Below, one piece after another: positions 8,264 to 55,807 of a stretch of DNA of 64,000 bases. The translations under genes and the position numbers were made by a program. Below the pieces are notes generated by a model that worked only from the letters and a program-made list of their open reading frames with translations, searched no databases and was not told the origin of the DNA. The stretch lies in IMG/VR virus record IMGVR_UViG_3300044568_004364. One strand, 5' to 3'. This stretch comes from a virus. Numbering within the stretch: position 1 is the first letter of the stretch; each line of letters begins with the position of its first letter.

Positions 8264-9268
8264 TTAAAACAAATCAAACAAATCGTCTTCGCTAAAGCTT
8301 TGGCCTTTTTTGCTATATTCCGTTGGGCGGCTATGGAAAAAGTCGGTCATGTTATTACCATGCAACTGCTCGTCAAACCAAAGAGTATCTTTTAGCAGTG
8401 TCTCATCGCATGTGAAAGGTTGTGCAAATCCAATTGCAACCATGCTTTCATTTATACGACTCTTGATAAACTCTTTAAGAATTGGTGCACTTAGTCCGTG
8501 TTCGTTTACGCCGTTAACCATCCAATCAACAATCTTGCTCTCAGCTTTAAATGCCTCGATTGCTTCACTTGCAATGCGCTCTTCAAGTTCAGCGTCAAAG
8601 AGTTCAGGATGCTCTTCACGTATGGTATTAATAATCTTAATACCAACAAGTGCATGAATATTTTCTTCATTGCGAGTATACTTAACTTGTTGGTCAGTAT
8701 CTTTAAGCACATTCTTAAATGTAGCAAACCAATTAATTACATAAAATTGGCTAAAGAGACTTACGTTTTCAACAAATAGAGTAAACAAGATAAGAGCATA
8801 TAGGTATTGCTTTTTGCTATCCTTATAAAAACGGTGTGTATATTTCTTAAGATACTTAACTCGTCCTTGAATCCATTCCAGCTTGAGGTTCTCTTCAAAG
8901 ATATCTTCAAGTTCAAGAACAGATAGCAACCGCTCATATGCGCTGTTATGAATAACTTCAATGTTGGCCATTACATAACCCAAGTCTTGTAGTGCAGGAT
9001 GCGGCAAGTTTTCTCCAAGTTTTGCCCAGAATGTTTTTACCGCAACTTCAATTTGACCAACAGCACTCAATGTGCGTACAATAATCTCACGATATTGATC
9101 TGTTAATACGGTCTTGAATTGATGAACATCTGCACTAAAGTTAAATTCTTTATCTGTCCAAAAACCATTATGCATGGCCTCAATGAATTGTTCAGTCCAT
9201 GGATAATGGTTTGGTTTTCGTGAAATTTGTTCTTCAAAAATGCTGTGTTGTTTTGTCTCGTTATTCAT
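8264..9268 (-). CDS. nrdB: class I ribonucleotide reductase beta subunit
   Basis: EVIHNSAY, ENVSLFSQF, EENIH, C-terminal DFF...EY. Confidence 0.93.
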   Translation of the reverse strand: MNNETKQHSIFEEQISRKPNHYPWTEQFIEAMHNGFWTDKEFNFSADVHQFKTVLTDQYREIIVRTLSAVGQIEVAVKTFWAKLGENLPHPALQDLGYVMANIEVIHNSAYERLLSVLELEDIFEENLKLEWIQGRVKYLKKYTHRFYKDSKKQYLYALILFTLFVENVSLFSQFYVINWFATFKNVLKDTDQQVKYTRNEENIHALVGIKIINTIREEHPELFDAELEERIASEAIEAFKAESKIVDWMVNGVNEHGLSAPILKEFIKSRINESMVAIGFAQPFTCDETLLKDTLWFDEQLHGNNMTDFFHSRPTEYSKKGQSFSEDDLFDLF

Positions 9269-9325
9269 AAATCGTAAAGCGTGTATACTATTATTATATA
9301 CTAATAAAGTAAAATGTAAACAAGA

Positions 9326-9619
9326 TTATTTACGATTTTCATTCATAGCCCGACGGCGTATGCTACGCAATGCGCCATTATTTGAATCTCTCAAAATGAC
9401 GGTATGTTTTGGATTTTTCTTTGCGTAATTATACAAGCTCTGTTGCTCGTCATCAGCCAAGTCTAGGTATTTACCCCAGCGCTCAAACTTATTACGACCT
9501 GTTTCGAAGCGTCGGAATATTTCAGATGGTACATTAAACAAGCGCCATGTAGCGCCTGTCTTTGGGTAATCTGATGGTGGCATCGCTACCGATGCGGTTG
9601 TCGTGTCTTCAGTTTTCAT
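9326..9619 (-). CDS. hypothetical protein
   Basis: ORF overlapping the upstream gene by ATGA. Confidence 0.6.
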   Translation of the reverse strand: MKTEDTTTASVAMPPSDYPKTGATWRLFNVPSEIFRRFETGRNKFERWGKYLDLADDEQQSLYNYAKKNPKHTVILRDSNNGALRSIRRRAMNENRK

Positions 9620-10200
9620 TGAACAATATCATGTTGAGTAATTAGGATCCGTTGATGTGTTTTATTGTGTGTTGCTGTATATACAGGTACGCCAAAAATA
9701 GTTCCGCATGGTGCAACATTTTCACTTATTGTTACCAGTGACTTTTTAAGAGCTAGGACTTCGCCTGTAAGTGGCAGCGCAACGTCATGACGTAATGTAT
9801 AGCGCCCTGCACGTAAATGTTGATCTTCTGTCAGGTACCAACGTGATTCATTTAACGGCGCAGTATTGATATCAAATCCAGTAACTTCTAAAAGCGCCTT
9901 TGATAGCGCTTCATCCGATAATCCTGTCTTTTCTTTAATAAGATATAATGCAGCTAGGTATGATGCAATTGTTGTTTTGCCAAAAGGTAGCTTATTTAGT
10001 AAGCGCTTAACATTAAATACAAGCTTATGAAATACATTATATTTACTGCGCTCTTCACTCGTTTCAGCCTTGCGTAATATATTACCTTGTGCATCTATCA
10101 ATCCCAACTTATATGCACCCATTTTTTGCCATGGTGTAGTAAGCAAACGAAGAAATCGAAATGCATAAAATGTATCGGCGGCGCGTGTGAATAGTCCCAT
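9616..10200 (-). CDS. conserved T4-like hypothetical protein
   Basis: FRFLRLLTTPW...AYKLGLID motif; late promoter at 10249-10256. Confidence 0.65.
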   Translation of the reverse strand: MGLFTRAADTFYAFRFLRLLTTPWQKMGAYKLGLIDAQGNILRKAETSEERSKYNVFHKLVFNVKRLLNKLPFGKTTIASYLAALYLIKEKTGLSDEALSKALLEVTGFDINTAPLNESRWYLTEDQHLRAGRYTLRHDVALPLTGEVLALKKSLVTISENVAPCGTIFGVPVYTATHNKTHQRILITQHDIVQ

Positions 10201-32696: not shown

Positions 32697-32850
32697 ATGT
32701 TTTTGTGGTTATTTGAGAATGATTTCTCAAACATATTTATACAAAAGCACAGCTTAATAGTCACCATTTATTGATCGCCAAATTACGTCAACCAGCTTGA
32801 TTAGCAGAATGGCGCACATGACCCACATCCAACCTTCAGAGACTGTAAAA

Positions 32851-34773
32851 TCAAATTTCATAGTTTATATATTGGTGCTCTAAGAGCGTATTGTTGAGAA
32901 TTGACTTTAATTCAAAACCGCCGACGAATGGAACATTACCACCAATTGTGTTTATAATATTGCGTGGAACATTACTCAATGCTTTATGCAAAGGGTCATC
33001 ATCGACGTGATCTGCAACATTCTTTTTTAAAGCAACACGCAAAAAATCAACATCACGCCACACCGTGTTCCAAACACAAACTTCAATTGATTGCTTTGTC
33101 ATATTCATAATCCTTTATCGCAATGCTAACTGAGTCATAAACTGAGCCATAAACTGAGTCTCTAACTGAGTCATAAACTGAGCCCCAAACTGAGACATAA
33201 ACTGAGCCATGTACTGAGTCACGGACTGAGTTATTAACTGAGTCCCAAACTGAGCCGCTAACTGAGTTACAAACTGAGCTATATACTTCCTTTTCAATAT
33301 TCATATTCTTGTATTGCAATGTCAACAGTGTTCCTAACTGAGTTACGAACTGAGCCCCAAACTGAGTTCCAAACTGAGTTAATAACTGAGATATTAACTG
33401 AGTCATAAACTGCACTATATATTTCCTTTTCAATATTCATACTCCCTTAGTGTAATATTAACAGAGTTCCTAACTGAGTCACTAACTGAGATACCAGCTG
33501 AGTTCCTAACTGAGTTCCTAACTGAGTCATGAACTGAGCCCCAAACTGAGACCCAAACTGAGCCATAAACTGAGCCATGTACTGAGTCACGGACTGAGTT
33601 ATTAACTGAGTCATCTATTTCCTTTTCAATATTCATACTCTTCTATTTCACTCCGCAAATTGTCATCAACTGAGTCCCAAACTGAGACAAAAACTGAGTC
33701 ATAAACTGAGTTATAAACTGAGTTATAAACTGAGTTATAAACTAAGTTACGAACTGAGCTACGAACTGAGCTACGAACTGAGTCATAAACTGCACTATAT
33801 ATTTCCTTTTCAATATTCATACTCCCTTAGTGTAATATTAACAGAGCTCTCAACTGAGCCATAAACTGAGACATAAGCTGAGACATTAACTGAGTCATGT
33901 ACTGAGTTCCTAACTGAGTCCCAAACTGAGCCATGTACTGAGTCACTAACTGAGTCATAGACTGAGTCATAGACTGAGTCATAAACTATCTTACGAAGTG
34001 AGACATCAACTGAGCGATTAACTGAGTCATCGACTGAATAATATATTTCCTTTTTAATATCCATACTCTGCTATGTGTGCTGCTAAATTATTGTACCGCC
34101 CAGCATCTCCTATAGAATCCTGAAACGAGTTACGAACACTATTATAAAGCGATATTGTTGGTAGGGTACCTGTTATTCTATCACCATTATCCAAAACATA
34201 CTCCCATGTTGCAGACCATAGCTCTTGCCGCAAATCTTGTTTAATATCCATATTCTTTTATTTCACTCTTTATATTAATACCAACAGAAATGCCAACTGA
34301 ACCAGCAACAGGCTGAGTGACCTTGCTACCAATCGTGGTGATAGGTAATATATGAACAGAATTATATACTGTATCAAAAACTGAGCTACTAACTGATCTA
34401 TTAACTGAGTTATTAACTGAGCCATCTATTTCCTTTTTAATATTCGTATTCATATTCTTTTATTGTAATGTCAACAGTGTTCCAAACTGAGTTACGAACT
34501 GAGCCGCTAACTAAGTTCCAAACTGAGCTACGAACTGAGCTACGAACTGAGTCATAAACTGCACTATATACTTCCTTTTCAATATTCATATTCTTTTACT
34601 GCAGCGTTAACAGAGCTCTCAACAGAGCTCTCAACTGAGCCATAAACTGAGATATCAACTGAGTCATAAACTGAGTTATTAACTGAGTCCCAAACTGAGC
34701 CGCTAACTGATTTTTCGACTGAGTTATTAACTGAGTCATAAACTGAGGTATATATTACCTTTTCAATATTCAT
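32851..34773 (-). repeat. array A: 10 tandem SV-X-X repeat mini-genes (34579-34773, 34437-34589, 34241-34453, 34054-34251, 33810-34064, 33626-33820, 33430-33636, 33294-33440, 33083-33304, 32851-33108)
   Basis: 12-bp unit TCAGTT-NNNNNN; proteins M(N/D)I(E/K)KE...(SVxx)n...EY(E/G)Y; consecutive genes overlap via GA(G/A)TATG(A/G)ATATT(G/A)A; two members are divergent. Confidence 0.85.
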
Positions 34774-34784
34774 ACAACAAAAAA

Positions 34785-34817
34785 GCGAGGAGCTTATTAT
34801 AATACAAACTCCTCGCT
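34785..34817 (-). terminator. hairpin or terminator between DUF6745 pair and array A
   Basis: GCGAGGAG...CTCCTCGC with T-tract on the minus strand. Confidence 0.55.
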
Positions 34818-34837
34818 ATATCTATTTGTGTTAAAGC

Positions 34838-35170
34838 TTAGTCGCGAACTGCTCGCATGTTTTGTGCAAAGTGATCATACTCTTGTTGAATGCCAACTTC
34901 CCATACACCAGGAGGCATAGCGATAGCATCGTGACGATTAGCATGCACGCAACGCACCTGAGTAGGTTTAGAGTTGCGAATGAATGTACGATCGCCAGAG
35001 CGAAACACTTTAGTGCCTGCTACCATATCAACGACATGGTGATTGCCAGTCGTCTCACTGTCTGCAATAATATGCAGATCGTTGTTAGTAGGCTTAATTT
35101 CAACTGCATCTGCTGGCAGTTCTGCGGGGAACAACATGGCTTCGCCATGGAGGATTACGTTTGGTTTCAT
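34838..35170 (-). CDS. His-rich small beta protein, usual DUF6745 partner
   Basis: HGE...SETTGNHH...H..H..I.MPPG.W.V..QQEYD. Confidence 0.65.
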   Translation of the reverse strand: MKPNVILHGEAMLFPAELPADAVEIKPTNNDLHIIADSETTGNHHVVDMVAGTKVFRSGDRTFIRNSKPTQVRCVHANRHDAIAMPPGVWEVGIQQEYDHFAQNMRAVRD

Positions 35171-35211
35171 ATCTATATTATAGTTTACTGTTTGTTAATT
35201 GCTAGGATTAT

Positions 35212-36192
35212 TTATGCGATTGTAGAGATGATCATATCACGTCCACCTAGACGTTGTTTGATTGCACTCACTAGATCTTTACAGTCTGGCGATACACCTT
35301 CAAAGTGGAAGATACTAGTAGTCTGATTGACCATGCTGAGATATGGCGCACTAGACAAGCCATCAAAGATTGCTTCCATATCCCAGAGCTCGTATTGACT
35401 CTTGACCCACCACTCATATTCAGCACCAGTATAGTTCTGATAGGTATCAAGCAATTTGCCTAAGCTCTTGAAGCGTTCGATACCAGCCTTGCGCACAAAC
35501 TCAGCTTTCACGTCAGCGTTTTGAATAGTCTTGTAGTACTCAAGATCCAACTTCTCTTCAGGAGTCACGGCAATATACTCTGGCACACGAACACCGTTGA
35601 GGGAATAGACCTTAAGGTCACCACGACCAGCATAAGTTAGCGCAGCTCCGCCATCACGATGCAAGCGATTCTCTTCATTGAGGAAGATTTCAGTAGGCTT
35701 CTCGCACACAATGGTATATTCTTCCATAGGGTAGATACAGCCAAGTTGCGCCGTTGCTTCCCATGTCTTATACTTAGCGTAGAGCTCAGCGTCTACCTCC
35801 ACCCCAACTTCTTCAAACATAAAGTCATAGAAGGAGAAGGTTGCAGCGAAGAATGAGCCACTCTGCCATGGGAGTTGTGCAGCGGGAATATCATACTTCT
35901 TAGTATTGCCATTGAAGACACTATCAAGCTCAGCATTCAAATTTTCAAAGCTTACATTAAAGTTGCTCAAGAGGTGACACGCAGCCCAAGCCTCCAATGG
36001 ATTGTCAAGAATAATCAGCGGCACATCTACAGGACGGTTAATGAGCGCGCGATACTGATCAACTGTCTTCTTGGTTCGAGTAGGATCAAGACGAGCAGTA
36101 TCAGTACCAACCGCAATCCATTTTGCGACATATTCGGGCATCTTAGCTTCTTGCTCAGGAGTGAGCTTATCAATTTTTTGTTTTTCTGACAT
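35212..36192 (-). CDS. DUF6745-like protein
   Basis: KIDKLTPEQEA...KW N-terminus; LHRDGGAALTY...NGVRVP; NADVK. Confidence 0.65.
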   Translation of the reverse strand: MSEKQKIDKLTPEQEAKMPEYVAKWIAVGTDTARLDPTRTKKTVDQYRALINRPVDVPLIILDNPLEAWAACHLLSNFNVSFENLNAELDSVFNGNTKKYDIPAAQLPWQSGSFFAATFSFYDFMFEEVGVEVDAELYAKYKTWEATAQLGCIYPMEEYTIVCEKPTEIFLNEENRLHRDGGAALTYAGRGDLKVYSLNGVRVPEYIAVTPEEKLDLEYYKTIQNADVKAEFVRKAGIERFKSLGKLLDTYQNYTGAEYEWWVKSQYELWDMEAIFDGLSSAPYLSMVNQTTSIFHFEGVSPDCKDLVSAIKQRLGGRDMIISTIA

Positions 36193-36270
36193 AGTATGTT
36201 TATTTGTGAGAGTTTTCTGCATCGCGAAGAATGAAGATTAATACGAAAATTAGTATGATTGCAATCATAG

Positions 36271-36472: not shown

Positions 36473-36520
36473 GTTACAGATTTATTATATACGGTTAGTG
36501 TGAGTTTGTAAAATAAAAAA
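36473..36520 (-). promoter_or_regulatory. phage early (sigma70-type) promoter
   Basis: TTTACA-N17-TATAAT-AAATCTGTAAC family motif. Confidence 0.75.
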
Positions 36521-37670: not shown

Positions 37671-37871
37671 TTAATTTTTACAGTGTTCATATTCTCTTAT
37701 TTCGCTGATGATTGAAGCTCGTACTTGAAAGTCAACAGGATACCAAACATCGGTGTGTAAGGAGCTAGGAAGATTACTAGCAGACAATCCGTCAATGCAA
37801 ACACCGCTAAATGCATATAGCAAGTCGTTTAAGATGGATGATCCTGCTATTTCATATTTGATGTTCATCAT
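37671..37871 (-). CDS. divergent member of the MNI...EYE mini-gene family
   Basis: MNIKYEI...SEIREYEH termini. Confidence 0.5.
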   Translation of the reverse strand: MMNIKYEIAGSSILNDLLYAFSGVCIDGLSASNLPSSLHTDVWYPVDFQVRASIISEIREYEHCKN

Positions 37872-39071: not shown

Positions 39072-39830
39072 TTAATTGCCGCATAGCTCCCTAGCCTCCA
39101 AAATGAGCTCTGCCGCAAGATTTTCGTTAAAATCATAGCGCAATTTGCTGCCGTCCATGACAAGATTTAGCTCCGCAAAGCTATCAGATACCAGCTTCTC
39201 AAGAGTCTCACAGGTGTATGATGATGGATTTGTTTTGATGTCAAGCAGCAGCATATGAAACTCTGTTCCAAAATCCGCAACATTTACCACATACTCTCCA
39301 GATTCAAAAAAGCGTTTACCCACTTCACATAGCCGTAAGATTTGAACAAAGTTCTTTGGAGAAAAGCCATAGTGTTGCACCGCATCTTTGCGCTTGCCGC
39401 CAAGACGACCACTGCGCTCACCCGTTGCAAGTTTTAATTCGCTATAGACATAACCGCGCAAGCTATTTTTCAAAACTTCAGTGTTGATTAAGCTATAGCG
39501 AAGATGATATAATTCAATCATAAACTTAGAACGATAAGTGAATGACTCCAATGGAGCAAACAATATTTCCATGACTTGAGTATTGCTCTTGCGCAGCAAT
39601 GACATATAATGGCCAATCTCATAATATGTTGCGTCGTGTGGTGAGTTTGTAACAATATTTGTGATTGTATGTAACCCACTCTTATGCAGGGGAGCGCGTG
39701 CAACAAAGAGACCGCGATAGTCAACATCAGAGTCAGCTGTCGCCAATCCATAAAGATTGCTACCACCTACAAGACTGCACAATAGACTAGAGTCATATTT
39801 GATAAAACTAAGATGTTCTTGGATATTCAT
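39072..39830 (-). CDS. Pol-beta superfamily nucleotidyltransferase
   Basis: GSNLYGLATADSDVDYRG; N..VMEILF. Confidence 0.8.
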   Translation of the reverse strand: MNIQEHLSFIKYDSSLLCSLVGGSNLYGLATADSDVDYRGLFVARAPLHKSGLHTITNIVTNSPHDATYYEIGHYMSLLRKSNTQVMEILFAPLESFTYRSKFMIELYHLRYSLINTEVLKNSLRGYVYSELKLATGERSGRLGGKRKDAVQHYGFSPKNFVQILRLCEVGKRFFESGEYVVNVADFGTEFHMLLLDIKTNPSSYTCETLEKLVSDSFAELNLVMDGSKLRYDFNENLAAELILEARELCGN

Positions 39831-40816
39831 ATTTTTCCTTCGTTATAATTCTTCTTACTTCAAGAGCTATATCCCCACAAAGTATATTGTCAATTTTGAA
39901 TCCTATCGAATCATATACGCTAGTGCTTATGTATGGTGTGGTTTGATCTGCTGCTGTTTGTCTACATTCACTCTGTACACACTTCCACACATGCTCATAC
40001 AGAGCTTCATTTATTGCGTATCCTATATTCATATTCTACTATTGTAGCGTTAACTGTGTTCATAACTGAGTTCATAACTGAGTTCCAAACAGAGCGATGT
40101 ATTGAGTTCCAAACTGAGATATCAACTGAGTCATAAACTGAGTTATTAACTGAGTCCCAAACTGAGCCGCTAACTGATTTTTCGACTGAGAGATCTATTT
40201 CCCGTTTAATATCCATATTCTTTCATTGTAGCGTTAACAGAGTTCTCAACTGAGCTCTCAACTAAGTTCCAAACTGAGCCATGTACTGAGCTCCAAACTG
40301 AGTTACTAACCGAGTCTCTAACTGAGCTACGAACAGAGACATGTACTGAGACATGTACTAAGCTATGTACTGAGTCCCAAACAGAGTCCCAAACAGAGTC
40401 CCAAACAGAGACCCCAACAGAGACCCCAACAGAGTTCCAAACAGAGACCCAAACAGATTTCAATATTTTTTCTTCAGTAGTCATAATTATATTCTAGCAT
40501 CTGCGCATTAACAGAGTCCCTAACAGAGACCCTAACAGAGTTCCAAACAGAGTTCCAAACAGAGACCCCAACAGAGTCCCAAACAGAGTTCCAAACAGAG
40601 TTCCCAACAGAGACCCCAACAGAGACCCCAACAGAGACCCAAACAGATTTCAATATTTTTTCTTCAGTAGTCATAATTATATTCTAACATTTGAGCATTA
40701 ACAGAGTCCCTAACAGAGTCATAGACTGAGCCATGTACTGAGTCACTAACTGAGCCATAAACTGAGCCCCAAACAGAGACATTAACTGAGAGATTTATTT
40801 TATCGTTAATATTCAT
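39808..40816 (-). repeat. array B: 5 SV-X-X mini-genes (40664-40816, 40474-40674, 40206-40484, 40007-40216, 39808-40032)
   Basis: Same 12-bp unit (TC[AT]GTT-N6) and EYxY/M overlaps as array A. Confidence 0.85.
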
Positions 40817-40818
40817 AT

Positions 40819-41130
40819 TCAATCCCAGTTCCAGCGGTTACCACTTTTTGTTGGAGCGTCAAGCGGAATAGCGTCATAGTCGGCGACATTCAATGCATCG
40901 CGAGTTGCTGCACGATTCTTACTGTTATGCTCGTCCTTTGTGCTTTGATTAATATTAGTTGCACGCTTATTGTCATGCGTATAGCAACGTGCCAATTCAA
41001 TAAGCTTACGAGGCGTATATTCTTTGTAATCACTCCAGCTAAAATGGAGAACATTGAAGTTACCGGAGTCGAGCTTGACTACTTTCCACTTGTTACGCTT
41101 AATGATTTGTATTGCTTCAGACGTGTTCAT
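40819..41130 (-). CDS. hypothetical protein
   Basis: ORF in early run. Confidence 0.55.
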   Translation of the reverse strand: MNTSEAIQIIKRNKWKVVKLDSGNFNVLHFSWSDYKEYTPRKLIELARCYTHDNKRATNINQSTKDEHNSKNRAATRDALNVADYDAIPLDAPTKSGNRWNWD

Positions 41131-52997: not shown

Positions 52998-53948
52998 TCA
53001 CATTCTTAGCGTTTTTGACTCAATTTCTTCAAGAAATGATCTATAGGCTCTCTCCAAACCATCCCGTAAAGATATTGTGGCGCGCCAACCCATCTGCTCA
53101 CATAGACTTACATCAAGAAGTTTTTGTGGAGTGCCATCGGCTTTGCTATAATCATTTTCAATTGTGCCTTTAAATCCAACAATATCGATAATTAGTTCAG
53201 CTAATTCTTTTATGCTAATATCATAGCCTGTGCCGATATTGATCCAATCAGGTGGATTTGCTTGCTCAATAAGAGTCATGCATGCAACAGCAAGATCATC
53301 AACATGCAAAAATTCTCTTCGAGGATTGCCTGTACCCCAAATAGTTACACTTGGTGATTGGTCAATTTTAGCCTGATGAATGCGACGAATAAGTCCAGGA
53401 ACAACGTGACTATTTTCAGGATGATAATTATCACCTGTTCCATATAAATTTGTAGGCATAGCAGAATGATAAAGAAGATCATATTGATTGCGATAGTGTT
53501 GGCACATTTTTAGTGCAGCAATTTTTGCAACCGCATATGCTTCATTAGTAACTTCCAATTGTGATTCAAGCAAATAACTTTCTTTAATTGGTTGAGGTGA
53601 TTGCTTAGGATAGATACAAGAACTTCCTAAGTTTAAGAGCCGTTGTACATTAGCGCGACGACTGCCCTCTATAATATTTGAAGCTATTGTAAGATTCTCA
53701 TATATAAATTCTGCTGGATATTGAGAATTTGCATGAATTCCTCCAACCTTCGCGGCAGCAATAATAACAACATCTGGTTTCTTTTCATTAAGAAAGTCAA
53801 ATACTGCTCTTTGATCCAACAGATCAAGCTGATCTCGTGATGCAACAATCAATTCATATTTGTCACTTTTTTCTACAGCTCGTACTAAAGCAGAGCCTAC
53901 CATTCCGTTGTGTCCGGCAATATATAATTTCTTCATATTAATAGCCAT
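52998..53948 (-). CDS. fcl: GDP-L-fucose synthase
   Basis: [44 protein letters not shown]. Confidence 0.93.
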
Positions 53949-55038
53949 TTTCTTTAAGCAGAGTCATGCGATTAGCTTCCCTTAAATCGTGAATTATCAT
54001 TTCTTCACACATTTGTTCAACACTAATCTCGGGTTTCCAACCAAGTTTTTCCATTGCTTTTGATGGATCGCCTAGCAATGTTTCAACTTCGGCTGGTCGA
54101 AAATATTGTGGATCGATTCGTATAATAATATCACCAACTTTAACACCGCTTGCCTTTGATGAATCACTAATGGCAGAAACAATGCCAATTTCATCGAGGC
54201 CTTCGCCTTTAAAATCAATTTCAATGCCTGCATATTTTGCGGACATTCTTACAAATTCTCTTACGGAAATTTGTTTACCACTGGCAATAACAAAATCATC
54301 AGGAGAATCTTGTTGCAGCATCATCCATTGCATTCTAACATAATCTTTAGCATGACCCCAATCTCTTAATGCATTAAGATTACCAAGAAATAAAGTTTTT
54401 TCTAGAGCAAGAGCAATATTCGCTATGCCTCGCGTTATTTTTCGCGTTACAAAGGTTTCTCCTCGGCGAGGTGATTCATGATTAAAAAGAATGCCATTAC
54501 AAGCATATATGCCATATGCTTCTCTATAGTTTACTGTTATCCAATATGCATATAGCTTAGCGACTCCATAAGGGGAACGAGGATAAAATGGAGTTTTTTC
54601 GGTTTGAATCTCGTTTTGTACATTGCCATATAATTCAGATGTTGATGCCTGATAATAACGGGTCTTTTTTTCTAATCCAAGAAAACGAATTGCTTCAAGC
54701 AATCGCAATGATCCTAATGCATCAACATCAGCAGTATATTCTGGCAAATCAAATGAGACAGCAACATGAGATTGTGCACCTAAGTTATAAATTTCATCAG
54801 GCTCAATTTCTTTGACAAGTCTTATTAGATTTGAACTATCTGAAAGATCGCCATAATGCAGATGAAACATGTTATTATCTTCATGCGGATCTTTATAAAG
54901 ATGATCAATGCGTGATGTATTAAAGGATGAAGATCTGCGTTTAATGCCATGAACTTCATAGCCCTTTTCAAGAAGCAATTCGGCAAGATATGAACCATCC
55001 TGTCCAGTAATACCAGTTATGAGTGCTTTTTTATTCAT
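53938..55038 (-). CDS. gmd: GDP-mannose 4,6-dehydratase
   Basis: [45 protein letters not shown]. Confidence 0.96.
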
Positions 55039-55410: not shown

Positions 55411-55807
55411 TTAATATTTGTATTCTTTTATTGTAACACGGACTGAACTAAATTCAGAGTCATTAGATATCAATTGACCGCATTGTAAAAATGAACCGCA
55501 AATTCTATTATTAACTGAACTCCAAACTATATCACGAACTGCTTTATGAACTGAATACCAAACTGGTTGATAGACTGCACTTTTAATTTCATCTTCAATA
55601 TTAATATTCATATTCTTTTATTGCAACGTTAAGTGAGTCATGAACTGAGACACGAACTGAGTCAACAACCGAGCCACGAACTGAGTCATCAACCGAGTTA
55701 TCAACTGAGTCATAGACTGAGTTATTAACAGTGTCCCAAACTGAGTCATAAACTGAGTTCCAAACTGAGTTCCAAACTGAGCGATTTATTTTATCTTCAA
55801 TATTCAT
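55411..55807 (-). repeat. array C: two SV-X-X family mini-genes (55601-55807, 55411-55611)
   Basis: MNIEDKINRSVWNSVWNS...KEYEY and a divergent partner. Confidence 0.8.

Follow-up and report, generated by a model that had tools for sequence, protein, structure and literature searches.

How is a row of small repeat genes in a phage related to the gene of unknown-function family DUF6745 that precedes it? We addressed this question in a window of 64,000 nucleotides, i.e., the whole stretch of DNA that was analyzed, which represents the reverse strand of a 73-kb IMG/VR virus record (IMGVR_UViG_3300044568_004364) with a completeness rated at 37%. The source is a fragment of a T4-like phage, and rIIB and a T4-type RNA ligase adjoin the same genes in close relatives. 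The window contains a DUF6745 gene, a gene for a partner of 110 amino acids and an array of ten mini-genes, most of which encode runs of Ser-Val-X-X tetrapeptides. A hypervariable tetrapeptide tract of the same design is found inside other DUF6745 proteins. The mini-genes quite probably are the detached form of this internal tract, as judged mainly from a comparison of viral loci, in which repeat mini-genes occurred only where the DUF6745 protein lacks the tract.

Results

Ten mini-genes with fixed ends and variable repeat cores

In the order of transcription, and all on the minus strand, the locus comprises a promoter match, a 63-residue open reading frame (ORF), the DUF6745 gene, the partner gene, a hairpin and the ten mini-genes, each an ORF of its own:

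36484–36512, minus strand: sigma-70-like promoter TTTACA-17-TATAAT, 11 of 12 consensus positions (consensus match only)
35212–36222, minus strand: repeat-less DUF6745 gene (PF20530), 336 residues; a start at 36192, as in the preliminary description (35212–36192), is equally possible
34838–35170, minus strand: conserved partner, 110 residues
34796–34824, minus strand: promoter-like TAGATA-17-TATAAT, overlapping the terminator-like hairpin
34784–34817, minus strand: terminator-like hairpin, 14 pairs followed by the T-run TTTTTGTTGT, between partner gene and array
34579–34773, minus strand: mini-gene 1, 64 residues, Ser-Val-X-X repeats
34437–34589, minus strand: mini-gene 2, 50 residues
34241–34453, minus strand: mini-gene 3, 70 residues, partly degenerate
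34054–34251, minus strand: mini-gene 4, 65 residues, family ends retained, repeat core lost
33810–34064, minus strand: mini-gene 5, 84 residues
33626–33820, minus strand: mini-gene 6, 64 residues
33430–33636, minus strand: mini-gene 7, 68 residues, the copy used for fold and co-fold
33294–33440, minus strand: mini-gene 8, 48 residues
33083–33304, minus strand: mini-gene 9, 73 residues from ATG
32851–33108, minus strand: mini-gene 10, 85 residues, degenerate member

The preliminary description of this DNA had listed ten mini-ORFs of 48–85 residues, all of which are present on the minus strand, and had noted Ser-Val-X-X runs in most of them. We found 4–15 units in eight of the ten; mini-genes 4 and 10 (34054–34251 and 32851–33108) retain the ends around a degenerate core. 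Position X1 is most often Trp (25), Tyr (22), Arg (19), Asn (11) or His (9) and position X2 Asp (37), Asn (28), Gly (18), Val (14) or Ser (10), in agreement with the residue preferences described before. Tandem Repeats Finder confirmed the underlying 12-bp arrays. Successive mini-genes overlap by 11 nt, once by 17 and once by 26 nt, and the overlap GAATATGAATATTGA encodes EYEY-stop in one frame and MNIE in the next. A word-indexed search with the 84-residue mini-protein among proteins of near length yielded no match (E 1e-3), for which the low complexity of the repeat is the most likely reason.

The array had been placed directly downstream of the two-gene module formed by the DUF6745 and partner genes. 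This holds physically, but the terminator-like hairpin and the promoter-like site intervene, and the array may hence be a separate transcription unit. The transcription unit with the DUF6745 gene probably begins at the TTTACA-17-TATAAT site at 36484–36512, as judged from its sequence.

The DUF6745 protein and its partner

The assignment to DUF6745 was confirmed with the Pfam hidden Markov model of PF20530, which matched residues 157–252 with 34 bits (cut-off 27 bits, E 2.3e-8); precomputed hits show PF20530 in nearly all close relatives as well. At E 1e-3 the 336-residue protein had 3358 representatives in a library clustered at 50% identity. The AlphaFold2 (AF2) model is of high quality, with a predicted local distance difference test score (pLDDT) of 93 and a predicted template modeling score (pTM) of 0.83, and consists of an N-terminal helical and a C-terminal α/β part. 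It aligned with an Atlas cluster at a template modeling (TM) score of 0.71 over 285 residues, and 92% of the cluster members contain PF20530. Moreover, BFVD contained a match to the DUF6745 protein of Microcystis phage Ma-LMM01 (E 1.1e-17). Comparison of the model with the PDB revealed no clear counterpart, with a best E of 0.098 in Foldseek and a best Z of 4.5 in VIA-align (48,161 chains), which by itself does not make the fold a new one, and a profile sequence search of the PDB returned nothing.

Among GenBank phages, megablast found nothing for the region and tblastn with the DUF6745 protein a single weak match (MW202476). A contig search with a 12-row alignment gave 8 small contigs of metagenome-assembled genomes only; the clade therefore appears to be phage-borne. 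PADLOC and NCBIfam had no match for the three window proteins, and their matches to repeat-bearing relatives were dismissed as low-complexity. Longer fused forms (589–2000 residues) were not found, a negative that the tool grades as weak evidence, and the literature searched does not mention DUF6745. The 73-kb record contains one DUF6745 gene only.

In 66 of 81 viral loci, irrespective of the repeat layout, the DUF6745 gene has a homolog of the 110-residue partner as its direct neighbor. Seven of the 110 partner residues are His, and G9, E39, G42, H45, H80, E97, D99 and D110 are invariant (H45 and H80 in all 55 homologs), a pattern that would suit a metal or catalytic site. Sequence searches found no Pfam and no PDB match for it. 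The window thus carries the two-gene module in its typical form, i.e., a DUF6745 gene with an adjacent partner of about 110 residues that has the invariant His pair (34838–35170). Two relatives, L115 and L116, in which the DUF6745 protein is 87% identical to that of the window, have a 387-residue gene with Pfam DUF723 (HNH-type homing-endonuclease-like) at 8977–10140 of either locus. It lies on the minus strand of these loci, opposite in strand to the DUF6745 gene and the partner, between which it is inserted, and splits the module.

Among 70 viral loci, repeat mini-genes accompany only tract-less DUF6745 proteins

That many DUF6745 proteins hold tetrapeptide repeats internally had been stated in the preliminary description and proved correct. 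An x-Val-x-x tract of period 4 (SV, QV, KV, EV or NV, with at least 3 consecutive period-4 valines) was present in 32 of the 150 best DUF6745 relatives, and further relatives have Leu or Ile versions. The tract comprises about 5 to about 70 units and its site is constant, between a helix ending PLxAWxA and the motif F-V-W-P-Y-x-D-G. At this site the window protein has 28 non-repeat residues; as had been described, it is without internal repeats.

We then analyzed 81 viral loci around relatives with a six-frame scan for small ORFs with period-4 hydrophobic repeats. Removal of duplicates of the protein left 70 distinct viral loci, in which mini-genes were counted if they lay on the same strand and within 6 kb. 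None of the 32 internal-tract loci had repeat mini-genes, compared with 22 of 37 tract-less loci (Fisher p 2.4e-8, a value that overstates the case because the loci are related to one another). When the comparison was restricted to loci that extend at least 4 kb to either side, mini-genes were present in 0 of 19 with and 13 of 18 without the tract. An apparent mini-gene in the internal-tract locus L048 was rejected as an unrelated Leu/Met-Val dipeptide run.

The mini-gene types are lineage-specific (SV, QV, NV, EV/KV, QL, AV), and each lineage has its own cap and tail. Their number per locus ranges from 1 to at least 26, with overlapping stop/start junctions in nearly all; over more than 100 mini-genes from more than 20 lineages, starts, stops and the overlapping junction are kept. 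Scaffold, partner and mini-genes are found together at L011 (72% identity), and all three parts lie side by side even at L012 (27% identity), where the units are Gln-Val and the partner is upstream. In about half of the loci the mini-genes are 1–5 kb away from the module. In a tree of the scaffold, built after removal of the tract, one clade of 33 rows held most of the mini-gene loci; L078, L058 and L012 stood apart, each beside internal-tract relatives, and two internal-tract loci were nested inside the mini-gene clade. From this pattern we conclude that the layout changed several times.

Mini-gene arrays turn over among close relatives

Relatives with 87–90% DUF6745 identity vary in mini-gene number, unit number and content. 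L118 (90%) carries six or seven mini-genes downstream of the partner, with other unit numbers; in its ortholog of mini-gene 9 the unit number is about half. Mini-genes are fewer in L117 (87%), and L115 and L116 (both 87%) have mostly non-repeat members. The contigs of L009, L010 and L011 end 169–1069 nt beyond the DUF6745 gene, at the edge of the array or slightly within it. Assemblies probably break at the arrays, which would then be under-counted in metagenomes.

The repeat pattern points to selection on a translated peptide

The constant residues of the array are encoded by C-TCA-GTT, and X2 codons are almost always NNC (GAC, AAC, GGC, GTC, AGC). AGT or AGC, which make up 48% of Ser codons in the long ORFs, are never used for the repeat Ser. 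Other lineages have their own uniform codon pairs for the constant residues, e.g., CAA GTC or AAG GTC. Synonymous sites are fixed whatever the lineage, whereas the first base of the X1 codon is nearly devoid of information, and X1 codons of the window vary at all three positions. Non-repeat caps and tails, ATG and stop are retained in one frame in every unit, and insertions and deletions comprise whole units. Lineage-specific codons together with a free first base of X1 argue for selection on the peptide rather than on a DNA motif. The internal tracts, whose frame is fixed by the domains on either side, have the same reading as the mini-genes. Because of this fixed frame and the codon pattern, we take the mini-genes as real and very probably translated genes. 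Their codons are consistent with units that evolve in concert through slippage or recombination while selection favors variety at X1 and X2.

Could the array instead be an untranslated 12-bp satellite that acts at the DNA or RNA level, e.g., in recombination or regulation, with ORFs as mere by-products of a stop-free repeat? Such a satellite would account for a repeat that is open in two or three frames and so gives shadow ORFs such as MTQL..., for the unusually uniform codons of the constant residues with their avoidance of AGT/AGC, and for the lack of a ribosome-binding site at the first mini-gene. It would not be expected to produce the same peptide pattern from different codons across lineages, to keep caps, tails, ATG and stop in one frame, to gain and lose whole units or to share its reading with internal tracts set by flanking domains; we therefore consider it improbable. 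More improbable still is a targeted mutator such as a diversity-generating retroelement acting on the variable codons. The NNC form of the X2 codons is what an AAC template codon predicts, and variation is limited to 2–5 bases per 12-bp unit. However, X1 codons vary at all three positions, the third included, many lineages show the same pattern with other codons, no template repeat was seen and the 73-kb record, rated 37% complete, had no match to a reverse transcriptase (RVT_1).

Shadow ORFs of 43–55 residues (MTQL..., MGSLLG...) lie in the +1 frame within mini-genes at 33447–33614, 33827–33982, 34270–34425, 34596–34739, 40494–40631 and 55618–55749. They exist because the 12-bp unit is free of stops in this frame, and gene callers could take them for genes.

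Predicted structure and binding of a mini-protein

Folded alone with AF2, mini-protein 7 formed a single helix of residues 3–67 at moderate confidence (pLDDT 77, pTM 0.33). Co-folding of the DUF6745 protein with this mini-protein, both supplied as alignments, gave scores of 0.58, 0.56 and 0.80 (median 0.58), compared with 0.03 for the best of three controls. The pLDDT of the partner chain was at least 69, and the runs agreed in at least 29% of contacts. Of the 80 solved complexes in the calibration of the tool, 58 reached the mark, as did 2 of 110 mismatched pairs; among those that passed, the score was 0.60 or less in only 7 of the complexes and in both mismatches. These counts hold only roughly here, since custom alignments were used. 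Co-folding of the DUF6745 protein with a mini-protein, a check proposed in the preliminary description, thus yielded a result in the expected direction that the tool rates as weak support. Given the comparative pattern, we read it as a modest addition and not as proof.

Other roles and folds were considered for the mini-proteins. The window copies are acidic (isoelectric point 4–5); across other lineages the net charge ranges from −18 to +15, which speaks against a DNA mimic. A β-solenoid like that of pentapeptide repeats disagrees with the single helix of the moderate-confidence AF2 model. Silent cassettes for gene conversion into an expression site were rejected too: all mini-genes have starts of their own, and the tract-less DUF6745 gene offers no place for a converted copy.

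Further family members and neighboring genes in the window

Proteins with the same kind of ends are encoded at three more places:

37671–37871, minus strand: small protein without repeats but with ends like those of the family (MNIKYEI...REYEH); homolog in L115
39808–40816, minus strand: second cluster, five members of the types MTTEEKILK...EYNYDY and MDIK/MNI...EYEY
55411–55807, minus strand: third cluster, two members

The subtype of the second cluster is the one that follows the module in L011. A 103-residue gene (40819–41130, minus strand) ends at the start of the first mini-gene of the second cluster, which appears translationally coupled to this unrelated upstream gene and not to the DUF6745 module. 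Directly after the cluster, a 252-residue protein is encoded at 39072–39830 (minus strand); its 249-residue counterpart in L118 and L119 matches Pfam RlaP (nucleotidyltransferase-like) and lies among small genes of the mini-gene family. Just downstream of the third cluster, a 366-residue ORF (53938–55038, minus strand) resembles GDP-mannose 4,6-dehydratase or a short-chain dehydrogenase, a likeness judged by its N-terminal GxxGxxG motif only. Just past the last mini-gene of the array, a T4-type late-promoter motif TATAAATA is located at 32734–32741 (minus strand); the window has 13 copies of this motif (5.9 expected), 12 of them on the minus strand.

Discussion

The preliminary description had proposed that the repeat module was externalized into trans-acting subunits. 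The shared repeat design, the mutual exclusion of internal tract and mini-genes and the recurrence of the arrangement down to 27% identity support this proposal; the terminator, the remote clusters and the phages that have neither tract nor mini-genes do not. Detachment of the tract is the best supported of the readings that we tested, and as an overall explanation, with the detached tracts serving as docking subunits of the scaffold, we hold it to be somewhat probable. That the mini-proteins bind the DUF6745 scaffold at all we regard as evenly poised.

Several findings weigh against detachment, and most of them would be expected if the mini-genes were an independent family of small early proteins, with conserved ends, cores expanded by replication slippage and targets of their own, that lies near DUF6745 only through a shared plastic early region. 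Seven further members are found 4 and 20 kb away, in two clusters remote from any DUF6745 gene. Non-repeat small proteins have the same ends, which may accordingly be the hallmark of a wider family of small genes. Between module and array lie a strong terminator-like hairpin and a promoter-like site, so that co-transcription is not assured, and mini-gene 1 has no Shine-Dalgarno sequence. In about half of the loci the distance of 1–5 kb between mini-genes and module is likewise what independent genes might show. Four records (G005, rated 100% complete, G003, G001 and G004; one of the four spans 150 kb) have a repeat-less DUF6745 gene and no period-4 mini-gene in the sequence scanned; the scaffold can therefore do without repeats. 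Among eight phylogenetically independent pairs, mini-genes and internal tracts went in opposite directions in 4–6 and in the same direction in none, and mini-genes did not differ in 2–4, so that the trend is only borderline (p about 0.06). Finally, the passing co-fold score falls in the weak band of the tool.

Nevertheless, an independent family would leave unexplained why mini-genes were present in none of 32 loci with the internal tract but in 22 of 37 without it, why their repeat design is that of the internal tract of the very same DUF6745 family, and why the mini-gene state arose separately beside internal-tract relatives. The co-fold median of 0.58, compared with 0.03 for the best control, adds weakly on the same side. 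We hence consider an independent family rather unlikely.

If the mini-genes are the detached tract, a mechanism can be proposed. Each mini-protein would consist of a short cap, a [Ser]-Val-X1-X2 run, probably folded as a single long helix, and the aromatic-acidic tail EYEY. The mini-genes would correspond to the hypervariable tetrapeptide tract that the majority of DUF6745 proteins have between the N-terminal helical and the C-terminal α/β domains. Their products may dock non-covalently on the repeat-less DUF6745 protein, which itself would work with the 110-residue partner, and one phage would in this way possess several alternative complexes, distinguished by X1, X2 and length. The chain of mini-genes may be translated by termination-reinitiation at the ATGAATATTGA junctions. 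More speculatively, the complexes might act early in infection against the host, e.g., in a counter-defence tuned by repeat number or content. In its fullest form, the array would be a combinatorial library of interchangeable, fast-evolving helical subunits that clip onto the scaffold and the His-containing partner via common end motifs, each giving another target or reach, and that arose several times by tract detachment; we put this forward as a possibility only.

The closest known relatives of the system are the DUF6745 proteins with an internal tract (PF20530, phrog_31813; e.g., in Ma-LMM01). They have a homologous scaffold, the same adjacent partner of about 110 residues and the same [polar]-Val/Leu/Ile-X-X design with a hypervariable X1. 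In contrast, the scaffold in the window has no tract, and the repeats are distributed over at least 13 separate small genes, each with start, cap and tail. A cyanobacterial DUF6745 cluster has the same scaffold fold (TM 0.64), and leucine-rich repeat (LRR) domains, a type of module in which ligand binding is usual, are found in 81–89% of its members. These fusions differ in repeat type and are bacterial, not viral; the cluster fits the idea of a variable binding module on this scaffold.

Mycobacteriophage Tweety gp54 offers a functional parallel. Like Che8 gp57 and PMC gp51, it is built from repeats with two constant and two variable residues, the repeat number differs between phages, and variation is found at first and second codon positions with the third fixed (PMC2884959). 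Pedulla and colleagues drew the same conclusion for gp54 as we do here, i.e., concerted evolution of units plus selection for variety (PMC2884959). gp54 contains about 48 Ala-Ala-X-X units, and escape mutants in unit number gain counter-defence against Phrann gp29/gp30 (PMC9262239). The mini-proteins resemble it in their tetrapeptide with two constant and two variable positions and in a unit number that varies between relatives. However, the gp54 repeat is Ala-Ala-X-X in a single protein whose function has been tested, whereas the mini-genes are known from sequence and models. gp54 is also no homolog of DUF6745: it had no Pfam match, and hhalign against the DUF6745 alignment gave a probability of 0.05%. 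The anti-defence idea for the mini-genes comes only by analogy with this unrelated protein, and a role in host conflict, be it the decoy or the anti-defence function raised in the preliminary description, is a tentative suggestion.

DUF6745 ranks as a very large family of phage proteins (3358 representative clusters at 50% identity), and few protein segments seen in phage genomes change as fast as its tetrapeptide tract. The split form indicates that the tract can function as a polypeptide of its own, whose role becomes testable by expressing and mixing the parts. If the mini-proteins are alternative subunits of one complex, they would represent a novel strategy by which a single viral genome holds many specificities. 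Should they form a combinatorial library, the phage would have a protein-level, multi-gene means to cover many host variants or defences at once.

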